A program made the translations under genes and the position numbers. This document shows, piece after piece, positions 4,657-63,438 of a stretch of DNA of 64,000 nucleotides (position 1 is the first letter of the stretch; each line of letters begins with the position of its first letter). A model generated the notes under the pieces. It worked only from the letters and a program-made list of their open reading frames with translations. It was not told where the DNA came from and did no database searches. Source of the stretch: a virus; the IMG/VR virus record IMGVR_UViG_3300045988_182914, positions 28,339 through 92,338 of that record. One strand, 5' to 3'.

Positions 4657-4878
4657 TCATTCAATTTTTTCACACCTGTCCTCGCCGAAAACGACGCCAA
4701 GCGTACTACCATTATCCCATTTGACATGGATTGTTCCGATGTCATCAACACCAATGACATTTCCCTCTTCGCCGGGCTCAAGCCTTGAATAAGGATCATC
4801 CATGCGTATGAGTCTTACTCGTGTTCCTTCCGGATAATCATGCTTCAGTTTCTGCAGCATAGTATCTGATATACGCAT
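4657..4878 (-). CDS. DUF4314-like small protein
   Basis: 73 aa. The motif GEEGNVIGVDDIGTIHVKWDNGSTLGVVFGEDRC resembles DUF4314, which is common on Firmicutes mobile elements. Confidence 0.55.
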   Translation of the reverse strand: MRISDTMLQKLKHDYPEGTRVRLIRMDDPYSRLEPGEEGNVIGVDDIGTIHVKWDNGSTLGVVFGEDRCEKIE

Positions 4879-5687: not shown

Positions 5688-5762
5688 AATTTATATTTCC
5701 TCCATTTTTCTTTTTTCTATACAAAGAGTATGTTCGATTTATTAATATTCGAAAAACTATCA

Positions 5763-9174: not shown

Positions 9175-9219
9175 ATTTTATTTCCTCCATTTTTCTTTAT
9201 ATATAACCTCAGTGACACA

Positions 9220-10186: not shown

Positions 10187-10280
10187 ATTTGTTTTTCCTC
10201 CATTTTTCTTTATTTTTATATGGAAAGTATGATAGTTTTTACATTATTGGCACAAAAAAAAGAGGGAAAACCCTCTTTTT

Positions 10281-10519: not shown

Positions 10520-10886
10520 TTACCATTTATAATCATCTTCTTTTCCATATAAAGCACCACCAGGAAGAAACATTCCTAATGCCTCTATTTCATATCTTTC
10601 TAATAATTCTCCTTTTCTATTACCTTTAAGCCATATGAATCTTCTCATAACAACTTCTTCAGGTAATAAAATAGTTTTTTTGGTTGTGAGTTGTATTCCA
10701 ATACCAAGTTTTAGCATTATATCACCTGCACCACCATTTATAAGATATTGTCTTAAAACCTCTGTATATTGATTTAGATGCACGTCCGTTTGTGCAGCAC
10801 CATAAAACATTTGGTCGGTTAATCTATGATACTCAATGTAGTTACATTTCATATTATTTTCCTCCATTCTTATGTCTTCGTTGTTC
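10520..10886 (-). CDS. Hypothetical protein
   Basis: True start is probably MNNEDI after GGAGGA. Its 5' leader is near-identical to those of ligA and the NTGxx protein. Confidence 0.5.
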
Positions 10887-11007
10887 ATTTGTTTGTCCTC
10901 CATTTCTCTTTTTCTTTATTACACAAAAAGTATGATAGTTTTTACATTAATGAAATTTTGCACACAAAAATCCCGGCACATGCGTACCGGGAAATTAATT
11001 ATTATTT

Positions 11008-11417: not shown

Positions 11418-12557
11418 TTACTCTGTTGCAACTGTATCAGGTACTTGGCTATCAGAAAGATAGTTTATTCCCATACGATACAGATTCATAGCTCCGATAC
11501 GGTCATCATTGGACTGATAGCCACAGTTTTTACAAGTAAACAAATGTATTTTCTTGTTACGGTTAGACTTTTCCGTATGCCCACAAACAGGACAACATTG
11601 ACTCGTATAACGAGGATCTACCTTAATTACAGAAGATTGATTCTGCTTTGCCTTGTAAATTAGTTTCTGTTCTAAACCATAGAACGACCACGACACAGAA
11701 ACATAACGGTCTTTTGTTTTGACACGCTCTGTAGCATTGCGAATACCCGACAAATCTTCTAATACAAAGAGTGTATGCTTCGGGTTATTCTCAACGAGTG
11801 CCTTCGATACACAATGGTTCACATCTTGCATCCAACGGTTTTCTCGCTGACCGATAGCTTTTAATCTTCGCCTTGAAGATGGAGTTTGTCGCATTTGGAG
11901 TTTTTTGCGAAGTTTGGAATAGTTAGCACGTTTCTGCTTGATAGCTTTTCCACTAACAAATCCAGACTTGTGATGACTGTCATAGGTTGCAACAACGAAG
12001 TTAATTCCTCTGTCAATGCCTACGACATTACAAATGTCAGAAATATTACTTTCTTTGACATCATAAGTTACTGGTATGTGAAGATAATATTTACCATGTT
12101 TGTTTGTGAGCTTGGCTGTACCAAACTTGTAAATAGAATGGTCAAAATATTTAGACATACCTTCAGCGAAATATGGCAGTTTAACACGACCATTCAGCGT
12201 ATTCACAGAAAAACAGTTTTGCGTTAAAGAATAATCTCTGTTCCAAACTAAATCATACTGAGGTTTCTTGAAGGTTGGTCGTATCCATTTATTTTGATTT
12301 TCGAGAATAGCTCTATATCGTGCAATGACCGTTTTCAAAACGGACTGAGCCATTTGCGATTTCAAACCAAATTTTTCTCTTAGAGTAGAATACAAAACTT
12401 TATTCAGTGAAAACTGCTTTAAATCATGAGTCTTGAATACATAGTCTGAAACATAATCACAGGCATCACGATAAACAGACATAGTTTCATCAAGCAAAAC
12501 TTTATCTGCATCAGTAGCGACTATTTGAACTTTTGCTGTTATAGTCATCTGTTCCAT
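11418..12557 (-). CDS. tnpB: TnpB (IS605 OrfB, RuvC-like RNA-guided nuclease)
   Basis: 379 aa. RuvC motifs GIDRG, LEDL and NDDRIGAMNL, plus zinc finger CPVCG...CKNCG. Confidence 0.9.
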   Translation of the reverse strand: MEQMTITAKVQIVATDADKVLLDETMSVYRDACDYVSDYVFKTHDLKQFSLNKVLYSTLREKFGLKSQMAQSVLKTVIARYRAILENQNKWIRPTFKKPQYDLVWNRDYSLTQNCFSVNTLNGRVKLPYFAEGMSKYFDHSIYKFGTAKLTNKHGKYYLHIPVTYDVKESNISDICNVVGIDRGINFVVATYDSHHKSGFVSGKAIKQKRANYSKLRKKLQMRQTPSSRRRLKAIGQRENRWMQDVNHCVSKALVENNPKHTLFVLEDLSGIRNATERVKTKDRYVSVSWSFYGLEQKLIYKAKQNQSSVIKVDPRYTSQCCPVCGHTEKSNRNKKIHLFTCKNCGYQSNDDRIGAMNLYRMGINYLSDSQVPDTVATE

Positions 12558-13679: not shown

Positions 13680-13937
13680 TCATGCCCTTTCTTTGGCCCA
13701 TGCTTTAGGGCCTTTAAGATTTGCACAGACAGATTTATATATCATGTCTGTCAGTTCCCTGCCGTACACGCACTTTATTGCGTCCACAAGACTCGCCTGC
13801 ACGTCCTGACCGTCATCAATCTCCTCAATGGCTGACATCAGCGAATCCTCTCTTTCGTACTTGTCAGGCTTAATTCCAAGCCTGTCTAAAAGTGCGTCAT
13901 GAAGCTTAATAATTTCATTTCTCCTGTTTGTTTCCAT
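13680..13937 (-). CDS. Hypothetical protein
   Basis: 85 aa. The RBS aaggagga lies within the tandem duplication. Confidence 0.45.
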   Translation of the reverse strand: METNRRNEIIKLHDALLDRLGIKPDKYEREDSLMSAIEEIDDGQDVQASLVDAIKCVYGRELTDMIYKSVCANLKGPKAWAKERA

Positions 13938-14161
13938 TTTTGTTCCTCCTTAATCCCAGTCTTCCTTTTGTTCCTCCTTAATCCCAGTCTTCCATTGCAG
14001 CGACTGCTTCTTTTATGTCTTCTTTGCTTCTCCAGATACGGCACGCGTCGCATATCTTTATATTTTTTTTGTATGCGCACACCATCTCTCTTACCGCGCA
14101 CCTTAACCAACGCAATGTGCGCTGAATTTCCTGATGCACCGCAGAAATAGCATTCGTTCAT
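13886..14161 (-). CDS. Hypothetical Cys-containing basic protein
   Basis: 91 aa. Start MNECYFCG directly downstream of conserved motif at 14165..14212. Confidence 0.4.
   Translation of the reverse strand: MNECYFCGASGNSAHIALVKVRGKRDGVRIQKKYKDMRRVPYLEKQRRHKRSSRCNGRLGLRRNKRKTGIKEEQKWKQTGEMKLLSFMTHF
13942..13997. repeat. 28 bp tandem duplication (2 copies) duplicating the RBS region upstream of 13680..13937
   Basis: gttcctccttaatcccagtcttcc[ttt/att]t occurs twice in direct tandem. Confidence 0.8.
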
Positions 14162-14164: not shown

Positions 14165-14212
14165 TTATCTCCACCTTTCTTTTTTATATAGAAAGTATGT
14201 TAGATTTTGTAA
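14165..14212 (-). promoter_or_regulatory. Example of the recurrent conserved promoter/5'UTR element (gene orientation AAAATCTAACATACTTTCTATATAAAAAAGAAAGGTGGAG)
   Basis: One of about 30 near-identical copies, each placed immediately upstream of an ATG. Confidence 0.6.
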
Positions 14213-14272
14213 AAGCCGGTGTCGCCTTTCCACATAAATATCCCCAGCACTTATGCACCGGGGATATGGTTT

Positions 14273-16741
14273 TTACACGCCGACTGATTCTTCAGCTTCG
14301 GCTTTCTTTGCATGATTTTTCTGTTTTGCAGCTTCACGCTCTGCGATTATCTCTTCCTGACGGTGTTTCATTGCCTCAAGGTTGAGTTTTGTACCACTAA
14401 ACACACCATCTATGTCTATTTTTGCAAGCAAATCGTTCGGAATTGAAACTTCTTCCAGATTTTTACAGTCTGCAAATGTCTTATTCAGATAGTTTACACT
14501 CTCTGGGATTTCAACTCTTCTTATATTTTCACATGCTCTGAATGCCGCTTCCCCAACATGTTTTACCCCGCCAGGAATCTTTATCACTCCGTCTTCAAGT
14601 TCATTGCGTTTTCCCATGTTTTTTATTAATGAACCTTCAAAAGATGCTCTGCCGATTTCTGTGAGGCTACTATTCTCCGCAATTACAACTGCGTTAAAAT
14701 CATGTTTGTTATAATAAAACACGGCATCCCCTATTTTCTCTGTGTTTTCAGATAAAACCACATTGTTGCGGTCTTTACTTAAAATATCCCCCTGATAACG
14801 GCCGGAGACTTCCTCTGAATAACGATATTTGCCAATATATGTCGAATGCTCTTCAAAGCTTTTTTCTTTATCAATCTGATCGCTTATTTCATTTCTGACT
14901 TTTGTGTAGTCAAATGCTGTAAGGAGCAGATGTCCATCTCTGCCGTTTTGTACATTTTTTACAATCATCGGCTCAAGGCCATTGACTTTTTCAAGATTAA
15001 CACAGCCTACAAAAGCATTATATTTGATACTCCTTATGTTCTCTGGAAGTGTGATGCTTCTGATTTTTTCATTAAGCATATATTCCGTGCCAATTTCTTC
15101 TGTTCCATCAGGAACTACAATATCCACCATTTCTTCGTTAGCATTAAGTTTACGGTTTTCACGGTCAATATCATTTTTCTCCGCGAGCTTTATAAAATCA
15201 TTTTCTTTTCTCATATATCGTTCAGCAGCTCTGCTAAAATCCTTTATTGAGTTGCTGTCTTTCATGAGTTCTTTTATTTCTTTCATTGAAAGATCTGTTA
15301 AATTCTTATAGTGACTGTCGTAATTTGGCGCTGCATACGCATAGTCAATTGACATTTCTTTGTCCAATACTGTATTTATTTCATTGCTGTATTTTTCAAG
15401 TTCTTTTTCGTCTGTATTTAACATAAAAGCTTTAAACTGTTCAAAATCATCTATTTGGATTTGTTCGTAAGGTTTATTAAAATACATTCCATAATTGTCG
15501 CACATAATACAATTGTTCGTAATCATGCCTGTGTTTGTTAAATCAGGAGTCTCATGTGCCACGACTTCTTTTAAAGCATTTATATATTCTTTTTGATTAT
15601 CTTCCTGATAACAAAAATCGGAAAATGCGTCTTCTATATTAATATTTCTAAGCGTATCTTTTGATATGATAATACCATCAGTTCTTGAAAAAGCTCCTTT
15701 TCCAACTTCCCTTACGCTGTCTGGAACTTTTATGACTGCAGGGCAGCCAGAAAAAGCATAGTTTCCTATCTTCTCAAGATTCTTACAGTACAAAAAGCTT
15801 ATATCAACGATTTCATTGCAATTCATAAATGCGCAATCGCCTATTTCTTTAACATTGTAAGGAATGTGTATAAAATTAAGACCTTTACAACCATGAAAAG
15901 CATAATTACCGATTTTTTCAAGTTCCTGTGGCAACTTTAAGCGGTCAAGACTTACATCATTTTCAAACACTCCTTCTGGCAGTTCCTTAAGCTGTTCCGA
16001 CAGATGAATGCGTGTCAATCTGTCACACTCTGCAAACGCATATTTTCCTATTTTTGCACCATTATTATCTGCTATATAAACTTCCGCAATATGTCCCTGT
16101 CCGGCAAAAGCATAGTCTCCGATGTCTTTTGCATTTGGCATATAAAGAACATTTCCACACACCGGAAGCTTTCTTGAATGCGCTTTCTCCCTCTCATCAT
16201 AAAAGTCATCATAATAACTTTTTTTATTCTGATTTTTATCATCTAAATCTTTTACATAATCACTGTCAAAAGTTTTGAAATTTTTATTATCAACAGCATC
16301 TCCAAACTCATCTTCCTGTACCATGTTAAGAACCTCATTATCGGCGTATTGATGAGATTCTACTTTTTCATCAGTAAGCGTAAATTCATTATGAAGATTG
16401 TCCTTAAAATAATTGTCAATGCTGGTATATCCATGTTCTTTAAAGTATTCTTTATTTTTTTCTGTTGCAAATTTTTCAATTATTTCCTTTGATTTCTCCT
16501 GATTCTTTTCATAATTAAAGAATTCTTCCTTTGTCATGTCGGTTGCATTATTATGCTGATAGTCTGGATAAAAGAATCCATCTTCTGATTCTTTCAATTC
16601 TTCAGAATCCTCAATGAAAACTGCCCCCGCTGTCTTACTTTCATTAAATATCTGCGGAAAATTGTATATGTTTGCCCATTTCTTATAATCTTCCTTGTCT
16701 ACTGGGCTTCCATCAGGCCCCTTGTATTCGAATTCACTCAT
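14273..16741 (-). CDS. BspA-type leucine-rich-repeat (LRR_5) protein with an acidic N-terminal region
   Basis: 822 aa. Repeated IGxxAFxxCxxLxxIxIP units typical of BspA-like LRR proteins. Confidence 0.8.
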   Translation of the reverse strand: MSEFEYKGPDGSPVDKEDYKKWANIYNFPQIFNESKTAGAVFIEDSEELKESEDGFFYPDYQHNNATDMTKEEFFNYEKNQEKSKEIIEKFATEKNKEYFKEHGYTSIDNYFKDNLHNEFTLTDEKVESHQYADNEVLNMVQEDEFGDAVDNKNFKTFDSDYVKDLDDKNQNKKSYYDDFYDEREKAHSRKLPVCGNVLYMPNAKDIGDYAFAGQGHIAEVYIADNNGAKIGKYAFAECDRLTRIHLSEQLKELPEGVFENDVSLDRLKLPQELEKIGNYAFHGCKGLNFIHIPYNVKEIGDCAFMNCNEIVDISFLYCKNLEKIGNYAFSGCPAVIKVPDSVREVGKGAFSRTDGIIISKDTLRNINIEDAFSDFCYQEDNQKEYINALKEVVAHETPDLTNTGMITNNCIMCDNYGMYFNKPYEQIQIDDFEQFKAFMLNTDEKELEKYSNEINTVLDKEMSIDYAYAAPNYDSHYKNLTDLSMKEIKELMKDSNSIKDFSRAAERYMRKENDFIKLAEKNDIDRENRKLNANEEMVDIVVPDGTEEIGTEYMLNEKIRSITLPENIRSIKYNAFVGCVNLEKVNGLEPMIVKNVQNGRDGHLLLTAFDYTKVRNEISDQIDKEKSFEEHSTYIGKYRYSEEVSGRYQGDILSKDRNNVVLSENTEKIGDAVFYYNKHDFNAVVIAENSSLTEIGRASFEGSLIKNMGKRNELEDGVIKIPGGVKHVGEAAFRACENIRRVEIPESVNYLNKTFADCKNLEEVSIPNDLLAKIDIDGVFSGTKLNLEAMKHRQEEIIAEREAAKQKNHAKKAEAEESVGV

Positions 16742-16966
16742 TTTCTTTACCTCCCAGATTTGAATTCCGATTAATGCTTACATATAAAGTATGATAGAAA
16801 CAAAAAAAATAACGGTTTTAATGAATTTACTGCGCAAAAAATCTCCTGACAACGTCAGGAGATGAATGCGCTGGATTTATATAGAAGCACATATCAGTAT
16901 GGATAAAAAATCATACTTATATCAGAAAGGCCAGCCTTATAAAACAAACCAGAGGAGGTGAATTCC

Positions 16967-18232
16967 ATGAGACAGATGAATCAGATGCCGTACATTATCG
17001 GCGCGGTAATACGCATATATCCTAGCAATAAACAGAAGCGCATTATCGCCAAAAATGACGGCGCCGCGCGTTTCATATATAACAGGCTTGTTGCCCGCGA
17101 CAGGGAGCTTCACGCCCTTGGAAGGGTCAAAAGATATTGTGAGCCTGTAGCTGCACGCATCTCATATCTTAAATCTCTTGGAACAAACCTCTCGGATTTG
17201 AAGGCTGTATATCCGTTCCTTGAGGATAAGGAAATTGATTCCCTTGCTGTCTGCAATGCAAAACAGAATTACCAGACCGCATGGAACAATTTCATGAAGG
17301 TCCCGGGCACGTCGATACCAACATTCCATAAAAAGGGATATTCAAAATCATACCAGACGAACTGCCAGTATCCTTCGGGATGCACCGACATCAAAAAGGG
17401 GAGTGTACACATGCTTGACCGTAAACATGTTCAGGTTCCAAAGCTGGGTTCTGTCAAGTTTAAGGATTCCGGCATGCTGCGGCGTATTTTTGCCAGAACA
17501 TCCGAAACACGCATAGGCTCAGTAAAAGTTGCAATGGATAACTGCGGCGACTACTGGATCTCCATGCAGGTCGGTTCGGTAGGTCCGCTCCACAATGCAA
17601 TGCCCGCAGTCGGACATGGTGTCGGAATAGATGTAAATGTCAAAAACCTTTACACGGACTCAGACGGAAATGAGGCTGAAAATCCAAAATTCTACACAAA
17701 AACAGAAAAGAAACTTGCCAAGGCACAGCGAAAGCTCTCAAGACGCATGGAGCGTGCCAAAAAAGACGGCAGGTCTTTATATGATGCAAAAAACTACCAG
17801 AAGCAGAGGCTTAAAACTGCAAAAATAAGCAGGTCAGTATCCCGCAGGCGCAAGGATTACCTTAATGTCCAGAGTAAGCGTTTAGTCGAAAGCCAAGACT
17901 TTATATTTACTGAGAACTTAAGCTCCAAAGCCATGATGAAAGATAATGACTATGCCAAATACATAGCTGATGTCGCATGGAGTAAATTCATCACAATGAT
18001 AAAATATAAATGCGGATTCTACGGCCGCATATTCGGCATGGTTCCGGCCAAAAACACCACGCAGATGTGTCATGTGTGCGGATTTATACTTACCGGTGAC
18101 AGTAAGCTCTCATTCAACGACCGTTCGTGGACATGTCCTAACTGCGGCACCTTCCATATGAGGGACCACAACTCTGCCATAAACATAAAAAACAGCGGAA
18201 CCCGGTTGTATTTACCAGATCCCGCTTTATAA
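16967..18232 (+). CDS. tnpB: TnpB (IS1341-type, no adjacent tnpA)
   Basis: RuvC-I GIDVNVKN, E in FTENLSS, RuvC-III RDHNSAINI, zinc finger CHVCG...CPNCG. GGAGG RBS before the ATG at 16967. Confidence 0.9.
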   Translation: MRQMNQMPYIIGAVIRIYPSNKQKRIIAKNDGAARFIYNRLVARDRELHALGRVKRYCEPVAARISYLKSLGTNLSDLKAVYPFLEDKEIDSLAVCNAKQNYQTAWNNFMKVPGTSIPTFHKKGYSKSYQTNCQYPSGCTDIKKGSVHMLDRKHVQVPKLGSVKFKDSGMLRRIFARTSETRIGSVKVAMDNCGDYWISMQVGSVGPLHNAMPAVGHGVGIDVNVKNLYTDSDGNEAENPKFYTKTEKKLAKAQRKLSRRMERAKKDGRSLYDAKNYQKQRLKTAKISRSVSRRRKDYLNVQSKRLVESQDFIFTENLSSKAMMKDNDYAKYIADVAWSKFITMIKYKCGFYGRIFGMVPAKNTTQMCHVCGFILTGDSKLSFNDRSWTCPNCGTFHMRDHNSAINIKNSGTRLYLPDPAL

Positions 18233-18425
18233 GACAATGAACACGCGTAGTTTGACAACTCACTACGTAACCGCTCCTTTACTGGTGTGCCACTGGCTGT
18301 CACTTCTGCGGAAGGACTTTCAAGCACGCTTTATCCGAGTAAGCTGTCTTCACAGACACGGATGTTTACACAAACTTCCGGTTTACAGACAGGTTTCCGA
18401 CAACGTCGGGAGTAGTTGACTTCTG
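18233..18425 (+). ncRNA. Putative omega RNA 3' of the solo tnpB
   Basis: Position only. Region contains stems such as ccggtttacagacaggtttccgacaacgtcgg. Not verified. Confidence 0.35.
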
Positions 18426-18502
18426 CCATATTATGATGTCCTCCTAAATCATTCAGTACTTATGCCAAAAGTATTATAGAAAATTAAAAACCAGCAGCTC
18501 TT

Positions 18503-18662
18503 TATATGGAAAGCCATTTTTCAAAATCATTTCTGACATACTATATGTGTAAAACAGGAATACAGATAAGCCTGTTAACATACAACTCCATTTTTCTTTT
18601 TAGATATGAGTCGGGGACGAAAGCCTCCGGCTATACGTTTGTCCAAAATTCCAAAAACAAAG
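18503..18662 (+). repeat. Structured repeat element, copy 1 (also at 53518..53662 and split at 61729..61812 + 62391..62445)
   Basis: About 85-90% identity among copies. Contains a conserved hairpin with a GAAA loop that shows compensatory changes between copies. Confidence 0.75.
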
Positions 18663-18943
18663 GCCATATACCCACAAAAGAGCACATGACCTCTGCTGCT
18701 GAACAGCACGGCGCAGCCGCTTCGCGAAATGCTTTTGCGCCATGGATGCTTTATAGCTTTGCTGTCGTTCATGCACCATTAAGTGGCTGTGCACAGGCCG
18801 ACAGTAGACAGGCCAGCCAAAGCCTGCCCGGCATCAACGGGCATCCCTTTCGTTTCTGCTGCTGCCTCTTGGGCCCTTCGACCCGGGAAATTCATGCAGC
18901 ATTCATTTCCTTCATTAAGTATGATTTATTTTTTCGCAAAAAA

Positions 18944-18976
18944 GAAGCCGGGCGATCAGAACCCGGCTTCGAAAAG
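18944..18976 (-). terminator. Rho-independent terminator hairpin (aagccgggcgatcagaacccggctt + T-run on minus strand)
   Basis: Perfect 9 bp stem followed by cttttttgcg on the minus strand. Confidence 0.6.
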
Positions 18977-19417
18977 TTGAGGAAATAGCATGATGACATC
19001 CAAATAATGTCTTCCCTGCTTAATATAAGTATGATAGATTTTTCTACCAATTTTCAAGCTTTTGTATTTGAAAAACAGAAACCTAGACAGTATACACCAT
19101 CCCGGCTTCCGCTTTTCAAAGATTTTTTTTGGAGGAATCGCCTTGATTACATCTTTTTTAGATGTCTTCCGCGTTCACTATAAGTATGATAAATTTTTCT
19201 GCGTGATATGTGTTTCTATATAAGTTTTAAACTAATTTACAAAAATATAGCATTCTTTCATCCCACGGCTGAAGCGTATAGCTTTCAGAATGCTATATTA
19301 CTGTAAATATTTCCTTTCTTCCTTTTCCTATAGTATGATTTTTCTTTCTCCTGAAATAAGCGCAGATTTTAAAAATAAACAGCAAAAACTTATATAGAAA
19401 GCCATAACTCGGCATAA

Positions 19418-19448
19418 TTTCTAACATACTTATGATATACAGAGAGAA
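19418..19448 (+). promoter_or_regulatory. Forward-oriented copy of the conserved promoter/5'UTR element upstream of cas12a
   Basis: tctaacatacttatgatatac about 30 nt before the cas12a RBS. Confidence 0.55.
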
Positions 19449-19475
19449 TTTTAAGCGAAAAAAGGAGAAATTGAG

Positions 19476-22400
19476 ATGAATACAGGTTTTAACGATTTCA
19501 CGAATCTTTCATCTGTTACAAAAACATTATGCAACAGACTGATTCCAACAGAAATCACGGCAAAATATATAAAAGAACACGGCGTTATTGAAGCCGATCA
19601 GGAAAGAAACATGATGAGTCAGGAGCTTAAGAATATCTTAAACGACTTTTACAGAAGTTTCTTAAATGAGAACCTTGTAAAAGTTCATGAACTCGATTTT
19701 AAGCCGCTCTTTACAGAAATGAAAAAGTATCTGGAGACAAAGGATAATAAGGAAGCTCTTGAAAAGGCACAGGATGATATGAGAAAAGCCATTCATGATA
19801 TTTTTGAGAGTGATGACAGATACAAAAAGATGTTCAAAGCAGAAATTACTGCTTCCGTCCTGCCGGAGTTTATCCTGCACAACGGAGCCTACTCCGCTGA
19901 GGAAAAAGAGGAGAAAATGCAGGTTGTCAAGATGTTCAACGGCTTTATGACATCATTTTCAGCATTCTTTACGAACAGGGAAAACTGCTTTTCAAAGGAA
20001 AAGATTTCATCATCTGCATGCTACAGAATTGTTGATGACAATGCAAAAATTCATTTTGACAACATCCGCATATACAAAAACATTGCAAACAAATTTGATT
20101 ACGAGCCTGAAATGATTGAGAAGATTGAGGAAGCTGCTGGTGGAGCTGATATTAGGAATATCTTTTCGTACAACTTCAATCATTTTGCCTTCAATCATTT
20201 TGTGTCGCAGGATGATATTTCTTCCTACAACTATGTCGTAAGCGGGATCAACAAGTTTATGAACCTTTACTGTCAGGCTTCAAAGGAGAAGTTTAGCCCG
20301 TACAGGTTAAGACGTCTTCACAAGCAGATACTCTGCATTGAGGAGTCTTTATATGATGTACCTGCAAAGTTCAATTCCGACGAGGATGTATATGCTGCGG
20401 TTAATGATTTTCTTAACAACGTCAGAGCCAAGTCTGTTATTGAAAGACTGCAGATGCTCGGCAAGAATGCTGATAGCTATGACCTTGATAAGATATACAT
20501 TTCAAAGAAGCACTTTACAAATATATCCCAGACACTGTACAGGGATTTCAGTGTAATCAATACTGCTCTTACCATGAGTTACATTGACACTCTCCCGGGC
20601 AAAGGCAAGACCAAAGAGAAAAAGGCTGCATCCATGACTAAAAACACTGAATTAATAAGCCTTGGTGAAATTGATAAACTTGTTGATAAGTATAACTTAT
20701 GTCCGGACAAAGCTGCAAGCACAAGGTCGCTTATAAGAAGCATTTCAGATATTGTCGCTGATTACAAAGCAAATCCGTTAACTATGAATTCCGGCATTCC
20801 GCTCGCAGAAAATGAGACTGAAATCGCTGTTCTTAAGGAAGCAATTGAACCGTTTATGGACATCTTTCGCTGGTGTGCAAAGTTCAAGACAGATGAGCCT
20901 GTTGACAAGGATACGGATTTTTACACAGAACTTGAGGATATAAACGATGAGATCCATTCTATTGTATCCTTATACAACCGTACAAGAAATTACGTAACCA
21001 AGAAACCGTACAACACAGACAAGTTCGGATTGTATTTTGGCACGTCTTCATTTGCATCAGGTTGGAGTGAAAGCAAGGAATTCACCAACAATGCCATTCT
21101 TCTTGCAAAAGATGACAAATTTTATCTTGGAGTGTTCAATGCCAAAAACAAACCTGCAAAAAGTATTATCAAAGGACATGATACGATGCAGGACGGTGAT
21201 TACAAGAAAATGGTCTACTCTCTTTTAACCGGACCTAACAAGATGCTGCCTCACATGTTTATAAGCTCAAGCAAGGCTGTACCGGTTTACGGACTGACAG
21301 ATGAGCTGCTTTCTGATTACAAGAAAGGCAGACATCTTAAGACGTCAAAAAACTTTGACATAGACTACTGTCACAAACTGATTGATTACTTTAAGCACTG
21401 TCTCGCACTGTATACTGACTGGGACTGCTTTAATTTTAAGTTCTCAGATACCGAAAGTTACAATGACATTGGTGAGTTCTACAAGGAAGTTGCCGAACAG
21501 GGATATTACATGAACTGGACATACATTGGAAGCGATGATATTGACAGTCTGCAGGAAAATGGCCAGCTGTATCTGTTTCAGATATACAATAAAGACTTTT
21601 CAGAAAAGAGCTTCGGAAAACCAAGTAAGCACACTGCTATTCTACGCAGTTTATTCAGTGATGAAAATGTTGCAGATCCTGTTATCAAGTTATGCGGCGG
21701 CACAGAAGCATTCTTCAGGCCAAAGAGCATAAAAACTCCTGTCGTTCACAAGAAAGGTTCTGTTCTTGTCAGCAAGACCTACAACGCACAGGAAATGGAT
21801 GAAAATGGAAACATTATTACTGTCAGAAAATGCGTGCCTGATGATGTTTACATGGAGCTTTACGGCTACTACAACAATTCAGGAACACCTCTTTCAGCAG
21901 AGGCGCTTAAGTACAAGGATATTGTAGACCACCGCACTGCCCCTTATGACATTATAAAAGACCACAGATATACAGAGGATGAGTTCTTTATCAACATGCC
22001 GGTGTCACTAAACTACAAGGCGGAAAACAGACGTGTAAATGTAAACGAAATGGCTCTTAAGTATATTGCTCAGACAAAGGACACTTACATCATTGGAATT
22101 GACCGTGGGGAGAGAAATTTGCTGTATGTATCAGTAATTGATACTGACGGAAACATTGTTGAGCAGAAATCCCTTAACATCATTAACAATGTGGACTATC
22201 AGGCAAAGCTCAAGCAGGTTGAAATCATGAGAAAACTGGCAAGGCAGAACTGGAAACAGGGTGTAAAAATAGCTGACTTAAAGAAAGGCTATTTGTCACA
22301 GGCAGTTCATGAAGTTGCCGAGCTTGTAATAAAATACAATGGTATTGTTGTCATGGAAGACTTAAACAGCAGGTTTAAGGAAAAGCGTTCAAAGATTGAG

Positions 22401-23267
22401 CGCGGGGTTTACCAGCAGTTTGAGACAAGCCTCATTAAGACTCTCAACTATCTGACATTCAAGGACAGAAAACCTCTGGAAGCAGGCGGAATTGCCAATG
22501 GTTATCAGCTTACATACATTCCGGAAAGCCTTAAAAATGTCGGAAGCCAGTGTGGATGCATTCTCTATGTGCCAGCCGCATATACATCAAGGGTTGATCC
22601 GACAACAGGATTTGTATCCTTATTCAAGTTCAGAGACATATCGTCTGAAAAAGTCAAGACGGATTTCATTGGCAGATTTGACTGCATCAGATATGATGCC
22701 GAGAAAGATTTGTTTGCATTTGAGTTTGATTACGATAATTTTGAGACATACGAGACCTGTGCAAAAACAAAATGGCGTGCATACACTTACGGCACCAGAG
22801 TTAAAAAGACGTTTCGAAACAGAAAGTTCGTTAGCGAAGTCATTATCGACATAACAGAGGAAATCAAGAAAACTCTTACTACCACAGACATAAACTGGAC
22901 AGATGGTCATGACATCAAACAGGAAATTATTGACTATGCACTCTCCTCTCACATATTTGAGATGTTCAAACTCACAGTGCAGATGAGAAACAGCTTATGT
23001 GAGTCGAAAGACAGAGAATATGATAAGTTTGTGTCTCCGATATTAAACGCGTCAGGAAAGTTCTTTGACACGGACGCTGCTGACAAATCGCTTCCTATCG
23101 AAGCAGATGCTAATGACGCATATGGTATCGCAATGAAAGGCTTATACAATGTACTTCAGGTGAAGAACAATTGGACCGAGGGCGAGAAATTTAAGTTTAG
23201 CAGACTCAGCAATGAAGACTGGTTTAGTTTCATGCAAAACCGTGCAGAAAAGACAGTAAACAAATAG
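19476..23267 (+). CDS. cas12a: Cas12a (Cpf1), type V-A effector, apparently catalytically intact
   Basis: 1263 aa. N terminus FTNLSSVTKTLCNRLIP. RuvC-I IGIDRGERNLLYVSVID, RuvC-II VVMEDLN, RuvC-III ADANDAYGIAMKG, Nuc QMRNS...SPILNASGKFFDTD. Confidence 0.97.
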   Translation: MNTGFNDFTNLSSVTKTLCNRLIPTEITAKYIKEHGVIEADQERNMMSQELKNILNDFYRSFLNENLVKVHELDFKPLFTEMKKYLETKDNKEALEKAQDDMRKAIHDIFESDDRYKKMFKAEITASVLPEFILHNGAYSAEEKEEKMQVVKMFNGFMTSFSAFFTNRENCFSKEKISSSACYRIVDDNAKIHFDNIRIYKNIANKFDYEPEMIEKIEEAAGGADIRNIFSYNFNHFAFNHFVSQDDISSYNYVVSGINKFMNLYCQASKEKFSPYRLRRLHKQILCIEESLYDVPAKFNSDEDVYAAVNDFLNNVRAKSVIERLQMLGKNADSYDLDKIYISKKHFTNISQTLYRDFSVINTALTMSYIDTLPGKGKTKEKKAASMTKNTELISLGEIDKLVDKYNLCPDKAASTRSLIRSISDIVADYKANPLTMNSGIPLAENETEIAVLKEAIEPFMDIFRWCAKFKTDEPVDKDTDFYTELEDINDEIHSIVSLYNRTRNYVTKKPYNTDKFGLYFGTSSFASGWSESKEFTNNAILLAKDDKFYLGVFNAKNKPAKSIIKGHDTMQDGDYKKMVYSLLTGPNKMLPHMFISSSKAVPVYGLTDELLSDYKKGRHLKTSKNFDIDYCHKLIDYFKHCLALYTDWDCFNFKFSDTESYNDIGEFYKEVAEQGYYMNWTYIGSDDIDSLQENGQLYLFQIYNKDFSEKSFGKPSKHTAILRSLFSDENVADPVIKLCGGTEAFFRPKSIKTPVVHKKGSVLVSKTYNAQEMDENGNIITVRKCVPDDVYMELYGYYNNSGTPLSAEALKYKDIVDHRTAPYDIIKDHRYTEDEFFINMPVSLNYKAENRRVNVNEMALKYIAQTKDTYIIGIDRGERNLLYVSVIDTDGNIVEQKSLNIINNVDYQAKLKQVEIMRKLARQNWKQGVKIADLKKGYLSQAVHEVAELVIKYNGIVVMEDLNSRFKEKRSKIERGVYQQFETSLIKTLNYLTFKDRKPLEAGGIANGYQLTYIPESLKNVGSQCGCILYVPAAYTSRVDPTTGFVSLFKFRDISSEKVKTDFIGRFDCIRYDAEKDLFAFEFDYDNFETYETCAKTKWRAYTYGTRVKKTFRNRKFVSEVIIDITEEIKKTLTTTDINWTDGHDIKQEIIDYALSSHIFEMFKLTVQMRNSLCESKDREYDKFVSPILNASGKFFDTDAADKSLPIEADANDAYGIAMKGLYNVLQVKNNWTEGEKFKFSRLSNEDWFSFMQNRAEKTVNK

Positions 23268-23398: not shown

Positions 23399-24095
23399 GT
23401 TGATACTGTGAGCGAAATGTCTACTAAGGTAGATTTCATCTATGTACTCGATTGCATACTTTGTTGATACTGTGAGCGAAATGTCTACTAAGGTAGATCA
23501 TGCGTTAACACACATATCAATTACGGTTGAAACTGTAAGCGGAATGTCTACTGGGGTAGATCTGCAATGGGTGAAAAAACATCCTCTAGTCGAAACTGTA
23601 AGCGAAATGTCTACTAGGGTAGATGATAGTCAAGATGATATCACAGTCATTGTTGAAACTGTAAGCGGAATATCTACTAGGGTAGATACAAAAAATATCT
23701 TTAATTTCTTCATCAGGTTGAAACTGTAAGCGGAATGTCTACTAGGGTAGATATATACTCTATAAGCTTATCTGATCCACGTTGAAACTGTAAGCGGAAT
23801 ATCTACTAGGGTAGATTTGATGATGCCACTATGGTTGAAAATGTTGAAACTGTAAGCGGAATGTCTACTTGGGTAGATACTATGATAATCATATGGACAC
23901 TGTGAGTTGAAACTATAAAGGAAATGTCTACTGAGGTAGATTTTCTCTTATTTTTTTAATTTGAATAAAGCTGAAACTGTAGGCAAAATGTCTACTGATG
24001 TAGATTATTCCCAGCATACCAAATAAAATATTTACTGATATAGATATATAGATAACTCAATTGAAGCTGTTAGCGAAATATCTATTAAAACAGAT
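23399..24095 (+). CRISPR. CRISPR array 1 (type V-A repeats, about 10 good plus 2 degenerate repeats, 26-29 nt spacers), leader at about 23340..23398
   Basis: 36 nt repeats ending AATGTCTAC-NNNN-GTAGAT (the Cas12a 3' handle hairpin). The array degenerates toward its 3' end. Confidence 0.95.
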
Positions 24096-24171
24096 CAGAT
24101 CAACAGTATAAGATGATGATAAAAAGCCTACAGCTCAGCCGTGAAATGTTGTACAAGTGCGTAATGTTAGG

Positions 24172-24986
24172 ATTGATACTGTGAGCAGAATGTCTACTAA
24201 GGTAGATCCTTTGACCATCTATTCTTCATGTTTGGTTGATACTGTAAGCGGAATGTCTACTTGTGCAGATGAGTTGCAGACGAATGGTTCTTTGCGTGTT
24301 GAAGCTGTAAGGAAAATGTCTACTGGTGTAGATATCATTTTGAATATCTTCCTTTCCTATGTTAAAACTGTAAGCGGAATGTCTACTGAAGTAGATCCTC
24401 TACCTTTTATCATTCGTTTTAATGTTGAAACTGTAACTATCCTTATCGGTCTGTAAATTCAATGTTGAAACTGTAAAGAAAATGTCTACTAGGGTAGATT
24501 GTACATCACTTGTAAAAGATGTAGGTTGAAACTGTAAGCAGAATGTCTACTAAGGTAGATATGAAATATTGTCCAGTGCTGTCTTCATTGGAACTGTTGG
24601 CGAAATGTCTACTAAGGTAGATCAGCTGAATTAATGGTTCCGTATTATCGCTGAGATTGTAAAGTGAAATGTCTACTGGTGTAGATTGATTATTACATCT
24701 CATAACCGTTCTGGTTGGGACTGTGAGCCAAATGTCTACTGGTGTAGATTATGTAGATGAGCAAAGAAACTCTCAGAAGGGCAGCGTTGATACTGTGAGC
24801 GGAATGTCTACTGGTGTAGATTCATTTTTTCATACGCATAATCAGAAAAGGTGAGTTGTGAGCAAAATGTCTACTGAGGTAGATTTCACAGAGAGTATGA
24901 TTTTTATTTGTTGAAACTGTAAAGAAAATGTCTACTGAGGTAGACGTGTAGATCACGGGTAGCAATATTTACTTGAAACTGTAAGG
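24172..24986 (+). CRISPR. CRISPR array 2 (about 13 repeats, one internally truncated at 24424..24437, last one truncated), own leader copy at 24121..24171
   Basis: Same repeat family. Leader about 85% identical to the array 1 leader. Confidence 0.9.
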
Positions 24987-24999: not shown

Positions 25000-25734
25000 A
25001 TGAATAAACTTAAAAACATGAATAAGAAAAAATCGTTTTGGAGTACATTAGTTAATGAATTCCTTGGAACTATTTTAATAACTTCTATTATAATTTATAT
25101 GATTGTGTTTATATTATTAGGAAGAGCTGGAATATTTAATTTTATGGGAGGTAGCAGTGATATAATAAACGGATTAGTTGCAGCAGCAGCCTTCCCAATT
25201 GTATTGGTCCTTGCATTATGTACAATAGTATTAATTATAAATATAGTAGCGTTTATTCCGCTTACTATACATAAAATTAAGGCCGTATATAATTACACCT
25301 ATCTTCCGCTTACCGCGGACGAGATTAAATATGCTTTGGATAAAAATATTATATCTTCTAAAGAAGATTATATTAAATTAATTTTGGATAATCTGCGTTA
25401 TGGAGTTACTAATAAACCATCTTTGTTTGAGTTTTTCTTTTCCACATGTTACATAACGTTCTCTCAAGAAGAGTTATATTCATTATGCAAAGCTTTTGAG
25501 AAAGTGTTTGATAGTCCGATTATAATTGATGATGATATGCTTTCATATCTTAATAAGTATGATACCAATTGTTCTCCTTTTGATGTAGCAAAATATAAAG
25601 ATGAAGTTTCGCTTACAACTATAAGGGAAGAATATGAAAATGGGAAAGATGCTACATTTGCGTTATACACGGATGGAGATAAATATAAAGAAATATTAGA
25701 AACAGTTGATTTCCCATTATATGTGGGCAAATAA
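25000..25734 (+). CDS. Hypothetical membrane protein (2 TM helices plus soluble domain) embedded between CRISPR arrays 2 and 3
   Basis: 244 aa, AT-rich. Its RBS aaggagg begins within the truncated terminal repeat of array 2. Confidence 0.6.
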   Translation: MNKLKNMNKKKSFWSTLVNEFLGTILITSIIIYMIVFILLGRAGIFNFMGGSSDIINGLVAAAAFPIVLVLALCTIVLIINIVAFIPLTIHKIKAVYNYTYLPLTADEIKYALDKNIISSKEDYIKLILDNLRYGVTNKPSLFEFFFSTCYITFSQEELYSLCKAFEKVFDSPIIIDDDMLSYLNKYDTNCSPFDVAKYKDEVSLTTIREEYENGKDATFALYTDGDKYKEILETVDFPLYVGK

Positions 25735-29107: not shown

Positions 29108-29370
29108 TTTTTATTGCTCTCCTTTCTTCTTTTTATATGGAAAGTATGTCAGAATTTAACAAAATGAATGATTTTTCCATATGAAAAAAGCTGCATGCAA
29201 GCAGCCCCTTTTCCTGTACAACAAAACAGAACCGGCGCTCCTTCCGGTCCTGTTCCGCGAAAACAAATTTTTAACAAAGTGTACAAGCTGCATAAGCTTG
29301 AAAGGTCTGTTCGGTATTCCCGGACATTATAAGTATGATAGATTTATCTGTTGAATATTGCTTTCCATAT

Positions 29371-38274: not shown

Positions 38275-38283
38275 GAAACACAT

Positions 38284-38631: not shown

Positions 38632-38635
38632 TTAT

Positions 38636-39832: not shown

Positions 39833-39983
39833 TTCTTATCCTCCATTTTTCTTTTTTTTGTAAAAAGAGTATGTAAGATTTTATATAGGCGGATGAGCTT
39901 CCATATAAAATGGCAGTATGCACAAAAAAGAACGCCTGAAAAACTTTTGTTTCTCAAGCGTCCTAAAATTTTGTCAAACAATA

Positions 39984-49053: not shown

Positions 49054-49245
49054 ATTTTTTCCTCCCATTTTCTTTTTTATATAGAAAGTATGTAAGAAAT
49101 TAGAAAACTGAAAATTTTTATAGCTGCATGCACGGTCGCCAGAATTTTAGGTACACTGCTTCATTTGATTTTTTGCGCAGGATTTTTCAAAAACAAAAAA
49201 CATACTAATGATATACAAAAAATTGACTATGAAAGGAATTTTTAT

Positions 49246-52734: not shown

Positions 52735-52901
52735 TTTCCTCCATTTCTCTTTTTCTGATATAAAGAGTATGTTTGAAAGAACAAAAATGGCATCAAAAAA
52801 AGTCCCGGTGAAATCCAGAACCTTTTGTTATTGAGAAAACCAAACATTTCCATATAAAATAAAAAATCATACTTTTTTTAAATAATCGCAAAAAAAAGGA
52901 A

Positions 52902-53495: not shown

Positions 53496-53517
53496 TAAAT
53501 AAAAAGTCAGCCAGACT

Positions 53518-53662
53518 TATATGGAAGGCCATTTCTCAAAATCATTTCTGACATACTATATGTGTAAGACAGAGGAAATCTGTTAATACACAACTCCAAT
53601 TTTCTTTTTAAATATGGGCCGGGCGCGAAAGTGTCCGGCCATACGTGTGTCCAAAAACGCAA
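53518..53662 (+). repeat. Structured repeat element, copy 2
   Basis: See copy 1. Hairpin GGCCGG-GCGC-GAAA-GTGT-CCGGCC at about 53608..53633. Confidence 0.75.
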
Positions 53663-53802
53663 AAACAGGAGCTGGAAAATATCCAGCCCCTGTTTTTGAT
53701 ATTTATTAAACAAATCATAAAGGAGTGTATACGCAGGGACTATTCTTCCCTGCAATATAAGTATGATATATTTTTCTTTCGATTTTCAGCTCTTCAGAAA
53801 AA

Positions 53803-55609: not shown

Positions 55610-55882
55610 ATTTTTTCCTCCATTCTTCTTTTTTATATGGAGAGTATGATATAAATTGAAAAAATGAAGTCTTCCGGCGACAACACCGAGCCCTGGCAAT
55701 GACGATATTTTCAAAATATCGTCAAACGGATATCTTTTCTGTATGTCCAAAAAGCCAGCAAATACAAGGCTTTCAGCCACTTTGCAGTATGGTGTCAAAA
55801 GAATCCGGACAAATTCCAAATAATATGACACCAAAAAAAAAGAGCCGCATCTCTGCAGCCCTTTGTTTATCATATCACTTTC

Positions 55883-56101: not shown

Positions 56102-56237
56102 GATAGTTTCCTCCATTCTTCTTTTTTTATATGGAAAGTATGTTAGATTTTGCATAAACCGGTATATGGTTTTCCATATAAGTATGCAAAAAAAGAGCCG
56201 CATTTCTGCAGCCCTTTATTGACCCAAGAGTAACTCC

Positions 56238-59530: not shown

Positions 59531-59820
59531 TTTGTTTCCTCCATTTTTCTTTTTATATGAAAAGTATGATAGAAAATAAAATACTGGACGCGAAAAACCG
59601 GCATCATTTCTGACGCCGGTTCCTCTTAGATGTCCGTAACTTTTTTGCGGTCGGATGTTCAGCTCTGACTGCACCATAAGTATGATAGATTTATTTTTCG
59701 TTTATTGCTTTCTATATAAGTTTTTGCATTAATATTCGCGAAAATGACCAAATCTCATTTTTCCTTTTTCTGACATACTTTCTGCAGATATTTTTTTTCA
59801 GAGAGGAGGAATAACAAACA

Positions 59821-61649: not shown

Positions 61650-61858
61650 TCTTTATATCCTCCATTTTTCTTTTTTTATATAAAGAGTATGATTGAAAGT
61701 AGAAAAACGAAAGGCTGTATGTGTTTTTATATGGAAAGCCATTTCTCAAAATCATTTCTAACATACTATATGTGTAAGACAGAGGAAATCTGTTAATACA
61801 CAACTCCAATTTGTTGAAATGACGGAAAGGAAAAATATGAAATATTTATTTTTTTTTA

Positions 61859-62131
61859 TTGTATGTAATAGTGGTAGGAGAGTTTTTGTTCAGCAGTCCA
61901 ATAAAAATTAAGAAAAACAGTGGTAATCCACGAGGACGGTATTTTTATAAACTGAGTGGTATTATTAACGTTATTTTTGGTAGTAGTGGCATAATTGCTA
62001 TAAATATATTGTTGATGAATAAGAATATTGTTCCACAAATGTACGTGTGGATAGGTATTATTGGTTTTATGCTCATTGAAGTATATGGAATGTTCTGTAT
62101 AGTAAAAATGATGTTATCGGTTGAACCTTAA
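61859..62131 (+). CDS. Small hydrophobic membrane protein (cargo of the insertion)
   Basis: 90 aa, 2 TM segments, very AT-rich. Confidence 0.4.
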   Translation: MYVIVVGEFLFSSPIKIKKNSGNPRGRYFYKLSGIINVIFGSSGIIAINILLMNKNIVPQMYVWIGIIGFMLIEVYGMFCIVKMMLSVEP

Positions 62132-62165
62132 CATCCCGATAAATTATGATTTGTGAGGTGATTAT

Positions 62166-62372
62166 ATGAAATGTCCTAAATATATTAAAGAAGCTCTTGA
62201 TAAGAGATTAAAGGCTGCACAACAATTTAACCATTACGATTTGATTGTTAGTGAATACATAGATAAGCATGATTTAGACGTAGATTCCTGTCATTATCAT
62301 GGTGGTTGCGAAAGTATTGTATTTCCCGAATCTTCTTATCACACAATCTTAGAAGCAATCAAAGAAAAATAG
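62166..62372 (+). CDS. Small soluble protein (cargo of the insertion)
   Basis: 68 aa. RBS gtgaggtgattat before the ATG. Confidence 0.4.
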   Translation: MKCPKYIKEALDKRLKAAQQFNHYDLIVSEYIDKHDLDVDSCHYHGGCESIVFPESSYHTILEAIKEK

Positions 62373-62490
62373 ACAGTTAAACTGAAATTTTCTTTTTAAA
62401 TATGGGCCGGGGGCGAAAGTCTCCGGCCATACGTGTGTATAAAAAGAAAAGAGAGGGAAAAATCCTCTCTAATCTTTTTGTTTTGACAAA

Positions 62491-63339: not shown

Positions 63340-63438
63340 GTTAAATTCCTCCATTTTTCTTTTTTGATATAACAAGTATGTTAGAATTAATAAAAATGAA
63401 AAAAGCCTGCAGGAATTATCCCACAGACTCTTTTTTGA

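Follow-up and report, generated by a model that had tools for sequence, protein, structure and literature searches.

The 64,000-nt stretch analyzed here (hereafter the window; positions 28,339 to 92,338 of IMG/VR virus record IMGVR_UViG_3300045988_182914) carries three copies of a repeat that may be a multicopy small RNA gene. We favor, with a probability of roughly 0.45, a reading in which the copies are small RNA genes with promoters of their own, the exposed segment of the RNA being antisense to a leader shared by many genes, and in which the repeats also mediate the shuffling of gene cassettes. Each copy would be a small autonomous transcription unit starting with the element's own bipartite promoter, which is predicted to drive many protein genes as well, cas12a included. 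The window belongs to a very large mobile element from the human gut, either a megaplasmid or a huge phage, with related contigs as long as 228 and 301 kb. Its genes lie almost entirely on the minus strand.

The initial annotation had placed the repeat at three loci, and both BLAST and short-probe matches bear this out. All copies are on the plus strand, at 18502-18641 (copy 1), 53517-53649 (copy 2), and 61727-61812 continued at 62391-62437 (copy 3, which is split by an insert). With copy 2 as the query against the window, copy 1 aligned at 82% identity over 156 nt (E = 3e-39), and the left and right halves of copy 3 aligned at 98% over 86 nt and 91% over 66 nt, E values for the other copies ranging from 3e-39 to 2e-21. 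Two probes of 20 to 22 nt matched only these three copies, with 0.04 and 0.00 matches expected. Metagenome contigs, all from human-gut assemblies, contain about 60 copies at at least seven locus types; this set comes from one exact-pattern scan (45 loci, 44 of them real), which retrieved only loci containing the repeat. Related contigs carry three to five or more copies. Conservation among the metagenome copies extends from the promoter through ...CCGGCYATACGTKTG and ends abruptly after it, and no conserved open reading frame (ORF) lies downstream. A covariance-model search of the window, with a model built from the metagenome copies, found no full copies beyond the three.

Two exact-pattern scans of IMG/VR gave no matches, and a promoter pattern gave one locus. 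When a loose promoter-linker-GCCGG pattern was used, 39 loci were returned, but not one of them fit the covariance model. The repeat is absent from 185,579 species genomes, which returned four chance matches only, and 25 kb of the window had no match among PLSDB plasmids. Among phage records, the window has relatives only in a pair of "Bacteriophage sp." scaffolds, both unannotated, that come from a study of human faeces. At gathering score, Rfam 15 recognized six tRNAs in the window and nothing else; a relaxed search (E up to 10) of 17800-19600 returned nothing credible, the best hit being NmsRb at 19 bits against a 52-bit threshold. We also rejected a coding role, as the ATG frames in the promoter box end at different points among copies and have no ribosome-binding site; the 160-aa ORF at 18506-18988 is an artefact of copy 1.

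Partial BLAST matches to the start of the repeat prompted a promoter profile search. The opening ~45 nt of the repeat turn out to be a bipartite promoter in general use by the element; they recur at at least 10 other sites in the window, before ordinary genes. Only the ~95 nt after the promoter are specific to the repeat. The architecture is TTATATGGAAAG-N18-TCTNWCATACT, with the 18-nt spacing between blocks fixed in most sites. The window has 31 instances of the upstream box (TTATATRGAAR), where 0.40 would be expected, and 23 of the downstream block (TCTNWCATACT), where 0.24 would be expected. Sites recovered by the profile search include 19387 on the plus strand, before cas12a, and 1926, 29375, 35789, 36652, 37499, 39911, 42024, 56184, and 59722 on the minus strand, plus others in related scaffolds; most are followed on the same strand, 20 to 60 nt downstream, by a Shine-Dalgarno sequence and a start codon. 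In the repeat copies, the promoter lies as follows.

18502..18513, plus strand: upstream promoter box of copy 1, TTATATGGAAAG (motif count)
18532..18542, plus strand: downstream promoter block of copy 1, TCTGACATACT, 18 nt past the box (motif count)
53517..53528, plus strand: promoter box of copy 2, TTATATGGAAGG
53547..53557, plus strand: promoter block of copy 2, TCTGACATACT
61727..61767, plus strand: promoter of copy 3, with the box at 61727-61738 and the block TCTAACATACT at 61757-61767

Given the fixed spacing of its blocks, the motif resembles a sigma-type bipartite promoter. A scan for the sigma-70 consensus found nothing within the copies, and since the motif is unlike that consensus, an element-encoded factor likely reads it.

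Two further features of these promoters deserve mention. In many ordinary promoters, the box TTATATGGAAAG reappears inverted directly after CATACT (CTTTCCATATAA), for example, at 56127-56181, 37446-37496, 29133-29143, and 10216-10226. The box and the first transcribed bases thereby form a 12-nt inverted repeat around the promoter core, which may be the binding site of a dimeric regulator. Separately, the promoter motif is followed by ~80 to 100 nt without an ORF at three minus-strand sites (19038-18940, 59689-59590, and 29342-29250), two of which end in a clear terminator, e.g., AACCGGCGTCAGAAATGATGCCGGTT-TTT near 59600; these sites are small-RNA candidates, unrelated to the repeat by sequence.

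The ~95 nt that follow the promoter of the repeat comprise a 5' stem-loop (P1), a 21-nt unpaired U-rich linker containing CUCC, and a hairpin capped by a GNRA loop (P2).

18547..18583, plus strand: P1 of copy 1 (GUGU/AUAC base, ACAGG/CCUGU top, 12-nt loop)
18584..18604, plus strand: unpaired linker of copy 1, AACTCCATTTTTCTTTTTAGA, containing a perfect 16-nt complement of the leader AAAAAGAAAAATGGAG
18605..18641, plus strand: P2 hairpin of copy 1 with its GNRA (GAAA) loop, and the conserved tail CGTTTG
53562..53591, plus strand: P1 stem-loop of copy 2
53592..53612, plus strand: unpaired anti-leader linker of copy 2, AACTCCAATTTTCTTTTTAAA (unpaired probability about 1)
53613..53649, plus strand: P2 GNRA hairpin of copy 2 and the tail CGTGTG
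61772..61812, plus strand: left part of copy 3, with P1 at 61772-61801 and the first 11 linker nt, AACTCCAATTT
62391..62437, plus strand: right part of copy 3, with the remaining linker TCTTTTTAAA, P2 at 62401-62431, and the tail

We aligned 28 distinct variants drawn from the ~60 copies in related gut contigs. RNAalifold and a hand-drawn model concur on three helices: P1a (GUGU/ACAC); P1b ((A/G)ACAGA/UCUGUU), with a freely variable loop of 4 to 14 nt; and P2, a GC-rich helix of 10 bp that can be extended by three A-U pairs past a bulged G (10 to 13 bp). Standard pairs fill 98.0% of the 644 pair cells, against 20 to 50% with slid partners. Alignment pairs 68-94 (GC 15, AU 11), 77-86 (GC 15, CG 11), and 16-29 show double compensatory changes, and none of 500 shuffles reached the observed covariation score. 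The compensatory hairpin differences first noticed among the three window copies are as described (P2 arms AGTCGGGGAC-GAAA-GCCTCCGGCT in copy 1, GGCCGGGCGC-GAAA-GTGTCCGGCC in copy 2, and GGCCGGGGGC-GAAA-GTCTCCGGCC in copy 3, where a C-G pair of copy 2 becomes G-C), and the covariation holds in the larger alignment. With double changes at three pairs only and among close relatives, we consider this support modest, though it exceeds what the three copies had offered. The GNRA hairpin also led us to consider a group II intron domain 5, a diversity-generating retroelement, and a retron; there was no Rfam match, and no reverse transcriptase was seen.

Several features assign the fold to the plus strand. 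About 60 pair cells are G·U on this strand and would be A·C mismatches if read from the other; the P2 loop is GAAA or GCAA only, its variation being confined to the N of GNRA; and the predicted fold is more stable on the plus strand (-34.3 kcal/mol, z = -4.25, with 0 of 200 shuffles as good) than on the minus strand (-22.2 kcal/mol, z = -1.68). Together with a promoter at a fixed distance, these features indicate a plus-strand RNA with its start at or just before the P1 stem. A functional structured RNA, one of the possibilities raised by the initial annotation, is thus the best reading, as both hairpins covary and carry plus-strand features.

Such an RNA may end past P2 or at a terminator next to it. 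No U-tract follows P2 (AUACGUGUG follows it on the plus strand and CAUAUUUAAAAAG on the minus strand), and a terminator scan did not call P2 on either strand. A bidirectional terminator is found within 10 to 20 nt downstream of copies 2 and 3.

53660..53698, both strands: bidirectional intrinsic terminator after copy 2, also terminating the minus-strand gene 53803-54243
62450..62470, both strands: bidirectional terminator after copy 3, ending the minus-strand DUF5688 gene (62491 to 63339/63375)

The former is likely the 3' end of the copy 2 transcript. We infer that the transcript would measure ~95 nt, or ~145 nt if extended to the neighbor's bidirectional terminator. Beyond copy 1, the ~270 nt that separate it from cas12a (18640-18912) are GC-richer, ORF-poor, and conserved in relatives, and a minus-strand promoter block, ATCATACTTA (~18925), reads into them. 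Fold z-scores in this interval (minus strand, -2.5; plus strand, -1.3) are weak and lend no independent support to a long structured RNA.

The linker, AACUCCAAUUUUCUUUUUAAA, is unpaired in both the minimum free energy structure and the ensemble and is the least variable part that was not fixed by the search pattern, with 0.046 differences per site, compared with 0.13 to 0.155 in the P2 arms and 0.565 in the P1 loop. The linker is the reverse complement of a shared leader, from the transcript start to the Shine-Dalgarno sequence (CCATATAAAAAAAGAAAAATGGAGG). The complementarity covers ~23 nt of this leader, which is present on about one fifth of the window genes. The motif AAAAAGAAAANTGGAG has 17 matches in the window, where 0.71 would be expected, and every one is on the minus strand; 14 of them lie directly between a CATACT promoter and a start codon, and the other three are the copies themselves. 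The match between copies and leaders spans from CCATAT, at the leader start, to TGGAG and then stops, and no start codon follows in the copies.

According to RNAduplex, the linker pairs with 15 of 73 translation-initiation regions at -15 kcal/mol or below and with 10 at -18 kcal/mol or below, whereas 200 dinucleotide-shuffled linkers gave means of 1.4 and 0.13 and maxima of 9 and 2, respectively. The top 14 regions are all promoter-proximal leaders, including those of the ligase, RadC, DUF5688, and copy 3 neighbor genes. The predicted target leaders are listed below.

5700..5715, minus strand: leader AAAAAGAAAAATGGAG of gene 4878-5687 (leader motif, RNAduplex)
9185..9200, minus strand: leader of the NAD-dependent DNA ligase gene 7054-9174
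10198..10213, minus strand: leader of gene 9220-10188
10898..10913, minus strand: leader of gene 10520-10888
14169..14184, minus strand: leader of gene 13886-14161
29119..29134, minus strand: leader of gene 28796-29107
39841..39856, minus strand: leader of gene 39380-39832
49062..49077, minus strand: leader of gene 48667-49053
52739..52754, minus strand: leader of gene 52420-52734 (leader motif)
55618..55633, minus strand: leader of gene 55043-55609
56111..56126, minus strand: leader of gene 55883-56101, with the best predicted duplex (-22.6 kcal/mol)
59539..59554, minus strand: leader of the RadC-like gene 59063-59530
61660..61675, minus strand: leader of gene 60885-61649, which adjoins copy 3
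63349..63364, minus strand: leader of the DUF5688 gene 62491-63339

By pairing with these leaders, the linker would mask the ribosome-binding site and lower the translation or stability of the gene set, making the repeat a multicopy trans-acting antisense regulator of the element's own genes. The wider proposition, that a Cas12a-encoding huge element steers a class of its own genes by a multicopy anti-leader RNA whose copies double as portable homology arms for the exchange of accessory gene cassettes between relatives, is one that we put forward tentatively and consider doubtful.

The covariance-model search also recovered a distant homologue, in MT835474 and L011 (L003:10146-10219 and L011:5008-5081). 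This homologue retains the promoter, a 5' hairpin, and a U-rich linker with CUCU; its GAGCCGG...CCGGCUC hairpin contains, on the promoter strand, three G·U pairs in a row. P1 has diverged completely, and the linker is still leader-like (AAAAAAGAAAAATAGAGA in MT835474).

Recombination between copies is recorded in the related contigs. Namely, the single copy of L027 is a chimera of the 5' part of the copy at L028:2735 and the 3' part of that at L028:3189, and the 454-nt interval is missing. Two copies lie 450 to 640 nt apart around a small minus-strand ORF in L028, L029, L032, and L039, and the intervals between paired copies are longer in L040 and L026. A single upstream flank recurs with five or more different downstream flanks, and the copy 1 locus has three different P1 loops among contigs. 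Variants of P1 and P2 occur in 22 combinations, indicating that crossovers fall in the linker. As dispersed direct repeats of ~140 bp, the copies recombine among themselves, and DNA between or beside them is thereby deleted, inserted, or swapped. The earlier proposal that the repeat captures cassettes holds in this sense, that homologous recombination between copies gains or loses the intervening DNA; its companion, that the repeat is an insertion hotspot, is not supported, since the seven filled copies share both junctions and the other ~55 copies are unsplit. One spacer of the CRISPR arrays, at window position 24500, shows a weak 22/24-nt match (E = 0.002) to L014:989-1012, L048:1962-1985, and L031:2834-2857. 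The matched site lies between two repeat copies, in a segment absent from the window, and may reflect the targeting of a competing relative.

Several observations weigh against a trans-acting RNA. The linker of the MT835474 homologue, when matched to gene starts, gave a nonsignificant result (24 against a shuffle mean of 18) and lends no support to a joint variation of linker and leader across lineages. The complementarity could also be a relic or a by-product of how the repeat originated: its minus strand resembles a promoter-proximal leader without promoter and start codon, that is, an ordinary promoter-leader module with P2 in place of the promoter core. Across 331 kb, leader motifs number 0 on the strand of the repeat and 42 on the other. 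All copies are antisense to neighboring genes, which would fit a role in cis as well; the same orientation is expected if inverted copies are selected against and the neighbor's bidirectional terminator is borrowed. Furthermore, the unit has no terminator of its own, since P2 lacks a U-tract; in some locus types (D, G, and E) the hairpin downstream suits termination on the opposite strand only, and some have no terminator. Finally, the double changes fall at just three pairs, in closely related sequences that exchange segments.

Among the alternatives, the one that survives best, and which we regard as somewhat improbable, is a regulatory and recombination cassette acting in cis without a trans-acting RNA, akin to the promoter-early stem-loop cassettes (PeSLs) of T4-type phages. 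Under this scenario, P2, read on the minus strand, would supplement the upstream gene's terminator or stand in for it, convergent transcription from the opposing promoter would insulate neighboring units, and the leader-like stretch would be what is left of an inverted promoter-leader module. What the repeat lastingly provides would be portable homology for the shuffling of cassettes. Every copy lies just past the 3' end of a minus-strand gene and is antisense to the local genes; at locus type E, P2 directly follows the stop codon of a 351-aa gene that has no other terminator; and the minus strand of the copies matches ordinary leaders from CCATAT to TGGAG. The recombinant alleles and mosaic flanks parallel the PeSL-mediated loss of ORFans in RB49/phi1 (PMC2839356). 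Yet the G·U pairs, the GNRA loop, and the fold energy favor the promoter strand over the gene strand, and P2, which has no U-tract on either strand, goes uncalled by the terminator scan. Moreover, the linker is the best-conserved part and is leader-like even in the homologue whose P1 has fully diverged, while a relic should decay.

The comparison with PeSLs is instructive on both sides. PeSLs, like the repeat, join a promoter to a GC-rich stem-loop in a composite conserved motif, ~100 bp long in their case, and recur in plastic regions. When PeSL copies recombine, small ORFs are lost or gained and a chimeric copy is left behind (PMC2839356, PMC4122927), and L028 and L027 show the same outcome, a chimeric copy and a lost interval. 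In contrast, a PeSL carries a sigma-70-type promoter and has at its end the Shine-Dalgarno sequence and start codon (ATG) of the gene under its control, whereas the promoter of the repeat is not sigma-70-like and no gene follows it; such an ending is found instead in this element's ordinary promoter modules. The repeat unit also points against its neighbors, and ~95 nt of structured, putatively transcribed sequence are conserved in it.

Copy 3 is split with precision: ...CAACTCCAATTT ends at 61812, TCTTTTTAAATATGGG starts at 62391, and the insert between them is exactly 578 bp, as the initial annotation had it, although its GC content is 30% on recomputation rather than 28%.

61813..62390, plus strand: imported cassette, 578 bp, 30% GC
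61819 or 61837 (ATG) to 62131, plus strand: ORF1, a membrane protein, frameshifted here by an extra T near 61850
62166-62372, plus strand: ORF2, 68 aa

The 90-aa protein previously assigned to ORF1 (61859-62131, TTG start) is a truncated reading; in relatives, ORF1 encodes 97 aa (ATG at 61837) or 103 aa (61819). The frame is shifted in a run of T's at 61846-61854, nine long in the window and eight in relatives; a slippage switch, a pseudogene, and a sequencing error are the candidate explanations. A comparison of filled and empty sites shows that the 578 bp are a true insertion polymorphism. The same two junctions occur in seven filled contigs, with cargo of 577, 578, 793, 845, or 1909 bp, and precise empty sites exist at the same locus in L010, L017, and L009, with flanks that are 85 to 94% identical over ~0.9 to 1 kb on each side. 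The filled contigs share the first cargo gene but differ in the small, often Cys-rich genes after it, and all of these genes read in the direction of the promoter. Filled and empty alleles do not separate by flank divergence but alternate; the cassette was therefore probably moved or lost on repeated occasions, with the half-copies as homology arms.

The cargo is foreign DNA. ORF1 is found only in this lineage, and relatives of ORF2 occur in 16 protein clusters, including a homologue with 81% identity beside terminase and portal genes in an unrelated siphovirus-like contig. In this unrelated contig, L051, DNA homology to the cargo runs from the ORF2 ribosome-binding site through the stop codon to AAACT-AAATT and then ends, which implies that the right-hand AATTT arrived with the cargo and that the junction is a microhomology of 4 to 5 nt. 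AATTT is present at both junctions, as reported, and is not a target-site duplication, the right-hand one being imported DNA. Neither terminal repeats nor a transposase were found in the cargo. Under our favored reading, copy 3 would have been disrupted when a foreign, low-GC gene block was joined into its linker by illegitimate recombination at the AATTT microhomology, and the cargo would now be positioned for expression from the element's promoter. A toxin/immunity activity of the two genes, raised in the initial annotation, found no backing: the cargo had no match in Pfam, PHROGs, PADLOC, or NCBIfam.

The cargo raises a second alternative, which we consider unlikely: the repeat would be an expression slot for accessory genes, in which the promoter and P1 form a stabilizing 5' untranslated region, P2 acts as a 3' stabilizer, and the uninterrupted copies are slots vacated or not yet filled. 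The cargo genes of copy 3 all read in the promoter direction between P1 and P2, and their content varies (577 to 1909 bp) between constant junctions. Nevertheless, there is a single filled locus type, and its identical junctions indicate one event, leaving ~55 uninterrupted copies at at least seven locus types; in these, the linker is the most strongly conserved part, which an empty slot would not need. The insert can also be compared with phage morons and accessory-gene islands. Like these, it is low in GC, carries small orphan genes with homologues in unrelated phages, and varies in content between close relatives; unlike morons, it has no promoter or terminator of its own and would use those of the interrupted unit.

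Least probable by far is a mobile repeat, either a miniature inverted-repeat transposable element (MITE) or an IS200/IS605-type palindrome-associated transposable element, or an integron-like single-stranded DNA recombination site that captures cassettes: the dispersed ~140-bp copies with sharp borders, the G·T-paired hairpins that also fit single-stranded DNA, the two tnpB genes of the window, and the AATTT at both insert junctions would agree with it, but the repeat has no terminal inverted repeats, the flanks of the ~60 copies share no duplication or motif, its left border is the common promoter box that ordinary genes also have, the tnpB segment, which stops at ~18420 within the start of another gene, does not occur in relatives with copy 1, the right-hand AATTT came with the cargo, the ORFs scanned (part of the window) include no tyrosine, serine, or Y1 recombinase, and species genomes lack the repeat altogether. 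The MITE proposed in the initial annotation is not supported, on these same grounds. Likewise, no integron integrase was present among the ~45 ORFs scanned, a part of those in the window, and the cargo genes are not separated by copies of the repeat.

Returning to the small RNA that we favor, its closest counterparts are the cia-dependent small RNAs (csRNAs) of streptococci and the anti-Shine-Dalgarno small RNAs of Firmicutes, which also occur as several closely similar copies per genome. In csRNAs, two stem-loops flank an unpaired stretch, their best-conserved part, whose sequence complements the Shine-Dalgarno region (PMC3091779). The repeat has the same layout, with two stem-loops around an unpaired anti-Shine-Dalgarno stretch in three copies in the window, and each copy is under its own strong promoter of one shared type. 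It differs in having no sequence or Rfam similarity to csRNAs, a promoter that is not a CiaR site, a P2 that is not a terminator hairpin, and a complementarity that covers the whole ~23-nt shared leader, beyond the Shine-Dalgarno sequence and AUG. It is also located on a mobile element, whose own genes are the predicted targets. In this regard, the repeat recalls c4 RNA of P1/P7, a phage antisense RNA that blocks the ribosome-binding site of its own mRNA through complementary stretches exposed in its fold (PMC12197685), and sar of P22: like them, it would be a structured antisense RNA directed at the genes of the element that encodes it. Yet c4 is a single-copy RNA, processed from a longer transcript and aimed at one target operon, whereas the repeat has no Rfam c4 match, is multicopy, and has a predicted regulon of many leaders. 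By analogy, then, the architecture is that of multicopy anti-Shine-Dalgarno small RNAs and the logic that of phage antisense RNAs such as c4.

The genes around the copies give the setting of this system. The window contains six tRNAs, two tnpB genes, cas12a, ~40 CRISPR repeats, an NAD-dependent ligase, NAD salvage genes, RadC, a type IV coupling-protein-like gene, and BspA-type leucine-rich repeat (LRR) proteins. Copy 1 sits between tnpB (16958-18232) and cas12a (19476-23267). The cas12a (Cpf1) gene is complete, lies on the plus strand, and has the promoter motif described above at 19387-19430. It is followed by two long CRISPR arrays (23399-24950 and 25866-26700, with ~40 repeats in total), separated by an ORF at 25000-25734 with no Pfam match; the CRISPR repeats are unusually heterogeneous outside their 3' stem (..AATGTCTACTNNGGTAGAT). 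A link between the repeat and CRISPR was rejected, as the copies have no CRISPR-repeat-like hairpin and the spacers match only the arrays of relatives, apart from the weak 22/24 match. The tnpB genes (IS605 OrfB/Cas12f-like) are at 16958-18232 (plus strand) and 11418-12557 (minus strand), the first within a 4.2-kb block (14218-18420) that also holds a BspA LRR gene. The corresponding place in MT835533 holds a further repeat copy and a gene of ~820 nt instead. We rejected a link to TnpB or an omega-RNA guide, as the tnpB block stops at ~18420 and relatives without it still have copy 1. On the minority strand, immediately before copy 2, a 197-aa membrane-protein ORF (52902-53495, plus strand) has its own sigma-70-like promoter match (52831-52860) and no family matches; in relatives, different DNA takes its place upstream of the same copy.

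Further from the copies, a tRNA cluster (38283-38971, plus strand) encodes Lys-UUU, Tyr, Phe, Ser-UGA, Ser-GCU, and Cys tRNAs, on the strand opposite most genes. The NAD genes (39984-44023, minus strand) comprise NAD synthase, nicotinate phosphoribosyltransferase, and a Nudix-NrtR-cytidylyltransferase fusion, and the NAD-dependent DNA ligase (7054-9174, minus strand) can be grouped with this NAD-related set. In large phages, NAD gene sets counter NAD-depleting defences. A gene at 49165-50421 (plus strand) matches the type IV secretion coupling-protein family (T4SS-DNA_transf, E = 5.5e-26), which suits a conjugative plasmid better than a phage. Two tandem repeats complete the picture: an 18-fold repeat of 15 nt at 9513-9887, inside the pentapeptide-repeat gene 9220-10203, and a perfect 28-nt duplication, TTTTGTTCCTCCTTAATCCCAGTCTTCC, at 13938-13993.

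To our knowledge, post-transcriptional control in the huge phages and megaplasmids of the gut is almost unexplored. A promoter motif for an uncultivated Cas12a-encoding element aids the annotation of its transcription units, that of cas12a included, and the promoter, leader, and RNA are short parts that lend themselves to tests in Firmicutes reporters. The recombination between copies extends to another lineage and another type of repeat the idea, developed in T4, that repeated regulatory cassettes drive modular gene shuffling. If our favored reading is true, the element would offer a clean, testable case in which one multicopy small RNA tunes about one fifth of the genes of a mobile element through a shared leader.

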